From a virus (Duplodnaviria > Heunggongvirae > Uroviricota > Caudoviricetes), in the IMG/VR virus record IMGVR_UViG_2724678986_000024, positions 1 through 26,042 of that record: a stretch of DNA of 26,042 nucleotides. The stretch is one strand, 5' to 3'. How positions within the stretch are numbered: position 1 is the stretch's first letter; each line of letters begins with the position of its first letter. Below, in pieces: positions 23,971-24,206 of this stretch. The notes beneath the pieces were generated by a model. That model was not told the origin of the DNA, searched no databases, and saw nothing but the letters and a program-made list of their open reading frames with translations. Position numbers and translations under genes: made by a program.

Positions 23971-23998
23971 TTGACAGTAATGTGCCTTTTTGTAAGAT
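23971..23998 (+). promoter_or_regulatory. Sigma70-like promoter for the 89-aa gene
   Basis: TTGACA (23971-23976), 16-nt spacer, TAAGAT (23993-23998) with TG just upstream; AT-rich palindromes lie immediately upstream. Confidence 0.55.
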
Positions 23999-24206
23999 CG
24001 TTCGCATTGTGAGCGACAAGATAATTGCGCGGCATTGTCCATGCAAAACGCCCCAATAGCAGCAACTATTGGGGCGTAAAACTCGGTCGGACTCACTTAA
24101 CCTGATATGCGTGCCTTCCGAAGTAAATCAAAATGTGCGTCGTATATTTTATTGCTTACACGCACCTCTGTAAAGGCACGCATATTTTTCCTATGAGGTA
24201 AATAAA

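Follow-up and report, generated by a model that had tools for sequence, protein, structure and literature searches.

The window, meaning the whole stretch of 26,042 nucleotides that was analysed, corresponds to an Escherichia coli P2-like prophage (Peduoviridae, Xuanwuvirus), phage 520873 being 99% identical to it here. The genes follow the order replication gene A, parM/stbA, parR/stbB, an intergenic region of 364 nt, a gene encoding a protein of 89 amino acids (aa), a terminator, cos and the portal gene, and the regulatory element considered here is located between parMR and the 89-aa gene. Of 5426 complete E. coli genomes, 173 carry this leader variant, those of ETEC H10407, whose copy is almost identical to the window leader, and of O157/O111 strains among them; the leader was without a match on plasmids. 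None of the 40 genome records listed carries an annotation at the leader site, and no description of the locus was found in the literature searched. In ETEC H10407 (L005, NC_017633) the 89-aa ORF is intact at 3366-3635 and absent from the RefSeq annotation, and the homologue of the gene is also unannotated in two E. coli records with a sister variant of the leader (L003 and L004). The partition genes upstream (22567-23842, plus strand) form a complete plasmid-type ParM/StbA and ParR/StbB pair in a chromosomally integrated P2-like prophage. Like the 89-aa gene, they sit between replication gene A and cos, a slot which we take to be a known hotspot for anti-phage genes in P2-like phages; the gap between gene A and parM is only 76 nt (22491-22566), and no parC-like centromere was identified for the pair in the window. 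The features of the regulatory element and of the gene behind it are as follows, in window coordinates.

23971-23998, plus strand: promoter P(+) of the 89-aa gene, with -35 TTGACA (23971-23976), a 16-nt spacer and -10 TAAGAT (23993-23998)
24005-24206, plus strand: 5' untranslated leader of about 200 nt
24048-24077, minus strand: H2, a GC-rich hairpin of 12-13 bp, in the window 12 perfect pairs (24048-24059 with 24066-24077) and a 6-nt loop, followed on the minus strand by GUUUUGCA
about 24040-24140, minus strand: predicted antisense RNA of about 100 nt
24105-24185, plus strand: P3, a long-range helix of 13 bp, 5' arm 24105-24117 with 3' arm 24173-24185
24135-24165, plus strand: P4, an inner hairpin, GTGCGT (24135-24140) with ACGCAC (24160-24165), its loop carrying the -10 of P(-)
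24146-24174, minus strand: antisense promoter P(-), with -35 TTTACA (24174 to 24169), a 17-nt spacer and -10 TAAAAT (24151 to 24146)
24175-24215, plus strand: P5, the predicted alternative to P3, which would bury the ribosome-binding site (RBS) and the GTG start
24185-24189, plus strand: T-run 3' of the outer stem
24207-24476, plus strand: 89-aa cargo gene (PHROG 3941), with a GTG start and GAGG at 24195-24198
24484-24504, plus strand: intrinsic terminator of the cargo gene, from the terminator scan

An original prediction had described a promoter followed by a structured leader with nested inverted repeats. The promoter scan returned P(+) at that position with 10 of 12 matches and a predicted mRNA start at about 24005, and TTGAnn and TAnnAT equivalents of it were aligned in all related leaders. 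The perfect 12-bp hairpin was recovered as placed, whereas the outer repeat (ATATGCGTGCCTT with AAGGCACGCATAT), described as 11 bp long, is indeed present but extends over 13 perfect pairs; it encloses the 6-bp inner stem, as had been proposed, and is followed by the T-run, which precedes GAGG and the GTG start at 24207. Across 1000 shuffled versions of 23843-24206, perfect inverted repeats reached 7.4 nt on average at their longest; arms of at least 12 nt occurred in two of the 1000 and two such repeats together in none. The leader fold of -71.4 kcal/mol compares with -54.9 ± 4.3 kcal/mol for shuffled sequences (z = -3.9; none of 200 shuffles as good), and this, together with the conservation of the same architecture in more than 55 diverged leaders, bears out the view of the region as a structured cis-regulatory 5' leader. 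Alternative pairings among TGCGTG/CACGCA cores, which had been suspected, turned out to be central. The start region itself, GTGCGGGC (24207-24214), is a fifth segment related to these cores that the original prediction had overlooked. A leader peptide was considered and rejected, the mini-ORF ATGTTTTCTTGA not being conserved on inspection by eye.

The surroundings of P(+) contain additional repeats. More inverted repeats were observed at 23910-24027, one of them with imperfect arms of 26 nt (23910-23935 and 23944-23969), and perfect 11-nt arms, CAATTATCTTG (23963-23973) and CAAGATAATTG (24017-24027), bracket P(+) and the transcription start. These repeats could be an operator, or a hairpin formed only in parMR read-through transcripts. 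P(+) is surrounded by three GATC sites inside 80 bp (23916, 23960 and 23996), one of which falls in the -10 (TAAGATCG). A GATC was also seen 6-9 nt upstream of the P(+) -35 in the leaders inspected, and in most clades a GATC palindrome (GAGATCTC or GTGATCAC) lies at the 5' end of the predicted antisense RNA. By analogy with IS10 pIN, these sites suggest a possible Dam methylation or replication-coupled control. A candidate LexA box upstream of P(+) was rejected due to its wrong spacing.

The conservation of the leader was assessed by gathering relatives of the 89-aa gene from genomes and viral contigs and extracting 122 distinct upstream regions. Two BLAST clusters, comprising 58 of these regions, share one common architecture and come from phages or prophages of Escherichia, Enterobacter, Yersinia, Providencia, Proteus, Arsenophonus and Gilliamella; the remaining 64, from other bacterial phyla or with upstream regions of another kind, lack this architecture. 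The shared architecture consists, from 5' to 3', of a plus-strand promoter, a variable 5' hairpin, the GC-rich H2 (the 12-bp hairpin of the window), an A-rich linker, the long-range helix P3 (the outer repeat of the window) enclosing the inner hairpin P4, and an invariant TGTAAAG followed by the hairpin P5 containing the Shine-Dalgarno sequence and the start codon. A profile of the other clades did not match the window leader significantly in nhmmer (E = 0.42, H2 only). The L003-type leader, the sister variant of E. coli P2-like prophages, matches the family profile over its full length (E = 6.5e-10), and the left half of the window leader is 75% identical to it, so the window is joined to the other clades transitively by sequence; this link is supported by L003 having the same gene in the same genomic slot. 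RNAalifold predicted no consensus structure on a plain MAFFT alignment of 28 leaders because gaps misaligned the hairpin arms, and two other kinds of alignment were used instead, one spacer-anchored with registering by hand and one carrying a structure projected from a single sequence. At gathering scores no Rfam model matched a leader in the whole window or in six other loci, and when the thresholds were relaxed for the window leader and for locus L337, only sub-threshold matches at chance level appeared. No ligand-pocket core was found, the invariant positions being those of the P(-) -35 and -10 and the H2 flanks.

Among the helices, H2 carries strong covariation and a clear strand preference. 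In the spacer-anchored alignment it is paired in 94% of cells, with compensatory double changes at 10 of its 14 pairs and a covariation score that none of 500 shuffles reached; slid controls were paired at 31-49%. Its interior non-Watson-Crick pairs, counted over 36 distinct variants, comprise 13 A·C or C·A and no G·U on the plus strand; as a plus-strand A·C is a minus-strand G·U, H2 appears to be maintained for an RNA of the minus strand, and not as the element of the plus-strand leader that it had originally been taken for. The flanking sequences are similarly asymmetric: on the minus strand GUUUUU precedes H2 and a U-rich tail follows it, whereas on the plus strand the sequence 3' of H2 is A-rich and has no U-tract, so that the mRNA should read through. 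H2 is therefore best read as a putative terminator or 3' stabilising hairpin of an antisense RNA, the window U-tract after minus-strand H2 being only UUUU and the simple terminator scan having made no call.

A promoter overlooked in the original prediction faces P(+) from within the leader. P(-) scores 10 of 12 matches in the promoter scan, equal in quality to P(+), and is directed toward the 12-bp hairpin, with a predicted start at about 24138-24140; its -10 lies in the P4 loop and its -35 is the invariant plus-strand TGTAAA. The pattern TTTAC[AT], exactly 17 nt and TAnnnT was present in 55 of 56 distinct leaders, the lone exception being an error-rich record. Ten kinds of -10 hexamer were observed (TAAAAT, TACGAT, TAAACT, TAGACT, TAATCT, TAGTCT, TACTCT, TACAAT, TAGTAT and TAGAAT), the middle of the -10 varies freely and the spacers are unrelated between clades. 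Since nothing beyond the -35, its distance from the -10 and three -10 positions (1, 2 and 6) is invariant, the conserved minus-strand sequence bears the signature of a sigma-70 promoter and not of an RNA motif. P(-) and minus-strand H2 thus predict an antisense RNA of about 100 nt, running from about 24139 to about 24043, which would be fully complementary to the leader at 24040-24140, including the 5' arms of P3 and P4. Since its predicted start at about 24138-24140 falls short of GAGG at 24195-24198, it would not occlude the RBS or the start codon directly, and its action must be indirect.

The long-range helix P3 occupies the same position in six clades with unrelated sequences, its 3' arm always beginning inside TGTAAAG or immediately behind it and its 5' arm following the A-rich linker, as illustrated by the following arms.

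Window: 5' arm AUAUGCGUGCCUU, 3' arm AAGGCACGCAUAU
L003: 5' arm GAGGUGUCAUCU, 3' arm AGAUGaACACCUC
L193: 5' arm GUGCUuGAAUGUUUU, 3' arm AAAGCGUUCGGCAC
L162: 5' arm CAGGGUGUUACA, 3' arm UGUAAAGCCCUG
L181: 5' arm AAGCAUUAuGGGCUUUA, 3' arm UAAAGCCCuauuUAAUGCUU

The inner 9 bp of P3 are 88.6% paired, with double changes at five pairs and 31 G·U cells on the plus strand; the register of the 5' arm in this alignment (A3) was chosen for maximal pairing, which biases it, but the result holds on the plain MAFFT alignment with projected structure, which was not fitted to structure and on which H2, P3 and P4 together are 76.8% paired as compared with 31-48% when slid. An ungapped outer extension of P3 was not supported (46.5% paired) because bulges differ between clades. 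An inner hairpin analogous to P4, CUUGAGAUCUC...GAGAUnnnCUCAAG, is found in most other clades.

It could be argued that the inverted repeats act as DNA, serving as repressor operators, as a parC-like centromere for ParM/ParR or as recombination sites. The position of parM/parR immediately upstream with no centromere identified, and the further inverted repeats and three GATC sites around P(+), would fit such a role, as would the occurrence of the H2 loop in both orientations in related phages, which implies flipping of the hairpin at the DNA level. The 6-nt loop is reverse-complemented on the same stem between close phages (L166 and L168, L193 and L196, L043 and L185; CGGCAA/TTGCCG, CGTCAA/TTGACG and CGCCAA/TTGGCG), so the hairpin has been flipped in place several times. 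However, the arm sequences of H2 and P3 were replaced wholesale between clades with pairing kept, which does not suit a protein recognition site, the wobble is strand-asymmetric (H2 has A·C only, P3 has G·U), which is an RNA signature, and the cassette is present in lambdoid phages that lack parMR. A function as DNA is thus regarded as highly improbable.

The 3' arm of P3 has a second conserved partner. In the window, P5 would be formed by CGCAU (24179-24183) with GUGCG in the start codon region (24207-24211), GGC (24175-24177) with GCU (24213-24215), and UUUCCU (24187-24192) with AGG·AAA of the Shine-Dalgarno region (24196-24198 and 24200-24202); the segment 24172-24218 folds with -11.2 kcal/mol (z = -2.2). 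This pairing accounts for the fifth TGCG-like segment at the start codon. The stretch from UGUAAAG to the start was predicted to fold as a hairpin burying the Shine-Dalgarno sequence, the start codon or both in all 25 representative leaders, and across the family P5 is 70% paired, as compared with 32-45% in slid controls, with double changes at 6 of 10 pairs. As the 3' arm of P3 can pair with either its 5' partner or the start, that 5' partner is a mimic of the translation start region, e.g. AGAAUGUUUU as compared with AGAAUGAAGC. When the segment complementary to the antisense RNA was masked, 24 of the 25 leaders showed a lower predicted accessibility of the start region, the mean going from 0.41 down to 0.275. 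In the window the thermodynamic model gave a decrease from 0.32 to 0.05 for the start codon, the Shine-Dalgarno sequence remaining almost unchanged (0.24 to 0.30), and in the minimum-energy fold of the free window leader AGGU is paired with ACCU at 24100-24103. For several clades the model had the start region closed with or without masking, and a kinetic, co-transcriptional argument is therefore needed.

These alternative pairings bear on the proposal, made originally, that the element is a transcription attenuator, in which the outer stem (24105-24185) and the U-run would stop transcription before the gene and re-pairing of the TGCGTG/CACGCA cores would relieve the block. The perfect 13-bp stem of the window is directly followed by UUUUU, the L003-type leader has AUUUUAUU after its P3, and antisense-driven attenuation has a precedent in enterobacteria in RnaG/icsA (PMC2879508). 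Nevertheless, the stem closes an interior of 55 nt and the terminator scan makes no call; the U-run is not conserved among homologues, no such run following P3 in the leaders of Providencia, Gilliamella and the L067 type, and where present it makes up the loop or the 5' arm of P5. In its conserved alternative pairing the 3' arm joins the RBS and start region and not an antiterminator, which points to control of translation, and an antisense RNA that captured the 5' arm would abolish the putative terminator rather than create it. Attenuation is therefore considered very unlikely.

Together, the comparison of leader sequences establishes the conservation of both promoters, of the hairpin and of the helices, and a selection on the hairpin that acts on the minus strand. 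The favoured reading, which is judged to be probable by a modest degree, is that of a self-contained cassette with two face-to-face promoters, in which the binding of an antisense RNA to the 5' arm of P3 would let P5 form and so block translation. P(+) (23971-23998) would produce the mRNA of the 89-aa gene with its leader of about 200 nt, and P(-) (24174 to 24146), inside that leader, would produce the antisense RNA of about 100 nt ending at the hairpin 24077 to 24048. P3 would pair the upstream, copy-like decoy (24105-24117) with the anti-start strand (24173-24185) and so keep the start site available, an open state that is probably the default because transcription reaches both arms of P3 earlier than the start site. 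The antisense RNA, complementary to 24040-24140, would capture the decoy arm and free the strand 24173-24192, which would then close on the RBS and GTG and turn translation off; the long RNA duplex would probably be cleaved as well. Pairing could be nucleated by the complementary H2 loops and by the unstructured A-rich and U-rich linkers. The antisense RNA would thus be expected to repress rather than to activate, and to act on translation.

A different account keeps the exchange between P3 and P5 but has it set by temperature, the cargo protein, a host factor or a ligand, with P(-) mainly interfering with P(+) or its RNA having another role. The promoters converge across a distance of only about 135 nt, the lysis-lysogeny switches of P2 and 186 are an established case of interference between face-to-face promoters, and in several clades masking of the antisense target hardly changes the accessibility of the start. 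On the other hand, the selection on H2 at the level of minus-strand RNA argues for a discrete, stable antisense RNA and not for mere polymerase traffic, and that RNA would be perfectly complementary to the very arm whose capture would flip the switch. The conserved unpaired remainder of the leader amounts to the short H2 flanks, far below what a ligand pocket needs, and no Rfam riboswitch model matches. Control by such another factor is hence held to be unlikely, if worth some weight.

As a proposed system of control by antisense RNA, the cassette would work like known cis-antisense systems and is a member of no curated family. With cis-antisense regulators of translation of the RNA-OUT, art200, sar and Sok type it shares a promoter on the opposite strand within the 5' UTR of the target; unlike in most of them, the predicted antisense RNA does not reach the RBS. 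In the sar/ant system of phage P22, convergent promoters and a short antisense RNA with a GC-rich hairpin control ant, an antirepressor gene, and sar overlaps the ant RBS and blocks it directly, there being no long structured leader. The cassette resembles sar/ant (RF00262) in its temperate phage setting, its convergent promoters and a short predicted antisense RNA with a GC-rich 3' hairpin, and its second cargo, described below, is antirepressor-like as ant is an antirepressor. H2 reached 22 bits against the RF00262 model, a sub-threshold match to the hairpin only (gathering score 43), and no sar match was found for other clades in the relaxed Rfam scan of locus L337. In the repZ/repA systems of IncI-alpha and IncB plasmids, Inc RNA or RNAI binds a leader element and prevents the long-range interaction that activates a sequestered RBS; these systems involve a pseudoknot, translational coupling to a leader peptide and replication control. 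The cassette, in contrast, would operate by a simple helix exchange (P3 versus P5), has no conserved leader peptide and serves phage accessory cargo.

Further parallels come from IS200, type I toxin-antitoxin loci and RnaG. In IS200, the cis-encoded RNA art200 lies opposite the tnpA 5' UTR and, with the structure of the mRNA, keeps translation low, the two acting independently (PMC4513863). Like art200, the predicted antisense RNA of the cassette lies opposite the 5' UTR of a mobile-element gene whose mRNA has its own secondary structure; unlike in IS200, it is predicted to act through structure by capturing the decoy arm, and it would stop at least 55 nt upstream of the RBS and has no sequence or Rfam relationship with art200. 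Type I toxin-antitoxin systems such as hok/sok and zorO/orzO combine a long structured leader of the toxin mRNA with a short antisense RNA that represses translation (PMC3919570). The cassette shares a structured leader with alternative folds, an adjacent or overlapping antisense promoter and residence in mobile elements, but its 89-aa cargo is hydrophilic and basic, unlike the small, hydrophobic, membrane-active toxins. In RnaG/icsA of Shigella, convergent promoters are also found, and the cis-antisense RNA acts on the structure of the nascent leader to cause premature transcription termination (PMC2879508). The convergent promoter pair is common to both, and the predicted antisense RNA of the cassette would likewise act on leader structure, whereas the conserved alternative structure of the cassette involves the RBS.

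The protein encoded behind the leader is judged to be genuine; it is basic and zinc-finger-like, with C-x3-H ... C-x2-C residues. A first single-sequence protein search returned only two near-identical matches; in all it has about 1800 homologues, with invariant C8, H12 and C33/C36 and an SQAxxVRH motif. The AlphaFold2 model has a pLDDT of 86, and the searches gave no assignable function and no fold relative. The protein is hydrophilic (GRAVY -0.57, pI 9.2, maximum 19-aa hydropathy 0.58) and has no membrane segment. A second, unrelated cargo of the same cassette is a 233-aa Bro-N domain protein (PF02498), which from its domain only is taken to be antirepressor-like; it was found at L240, L280, L310, L327, L330, L334, L339, L342, L343, L345, L352 and L360. 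A loose DNA pattern, GAGATCTC...TGTAAAGC, gave mostly random matches and a stricter one was required. With the strict pattern, which covers the enterobacterial form of the cassette, 35 copies were found in viral contigs (25 before the zinc-finger-like gene and 10 before the Bro-N gene) and 13 in metagenomes (11 and 2, respectively). The junction between cassette and cargo lies at the ribosome-binding site for both cargoes. One Bro-N copy is located just 3' of a cI-like repressor gene, as read from ORF translations, a P22-like Salmonella phage has the zinc-finger-like gene directly after cI with the cassette absent, and in an Arsenophonus phage-plasmid the zinc-finger-like gene lies between Q and the lysis genes. 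Positions after cI, or between Q and the lysis genes, are typical of accessory (moron) genes.

If the antisense RNA were confirmed, the cassette would represent a new regulatory RNA family, absent from Rfam, with the -35 and -10 of an antisense promoter embedded between and within the helices of the mRNA, a decoy arm that imitates the start region, and a whole unit that has been relocated upstream of at least two unrelated cargo genes. It would also mark the widespread 89-aa protein as a product that phages keep silent, and thus as a candidate toxin, defence effector or antirepressor. A further suggestion, which we hold to be distinctly unlikely as it stands, is that the cassette is a mobile plug-in gate placed before dangerous effectors, be they zinc-finger-like or Bro-N proteins, which are silenced in the lysogen by the antisense RNA and translated when its supply drops. 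Such a drop might follow, for example, from the shut-off of transcription by a superinfecting phage or from replication changing the Dam methylation of the conserved GATC, upon which the pre-made mRNA would refold and be translated. This would, if true, amount to a type-I-like toxin-antitoxin or abortive-infection system or to an induction switch, with an effector that is not a membrane protein and an indirect action by decoy capture.

Two other regions of the prophage were noted in passing. An Rfam isrK RNA (18707-18781, 62.8 bits) is directly followed by a C4 antisense RNA (18817-18904, 78.5 bits) on the plus strand at 18707-18904, a pair which we take to be the RNA module of the P1/P7 and Gifsy-1 type tied to the control of antirepressors and which is here carried by a P2-like prophage; it recurs in the Arsenophonus locus L040 (5145-5328). 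The cos-proximal region 24510-24620, 3' of the terminator of the 89-aa gene, contains the direct repeats GTTTGCACGAT/GTTTGCACAAT (24510-24520 and 24530-24540), overlapping palindromes around GTGCAC and several T-runs, and it probably lies at or beside cos, since it is 99% identical to the left end of phage 500465-2.
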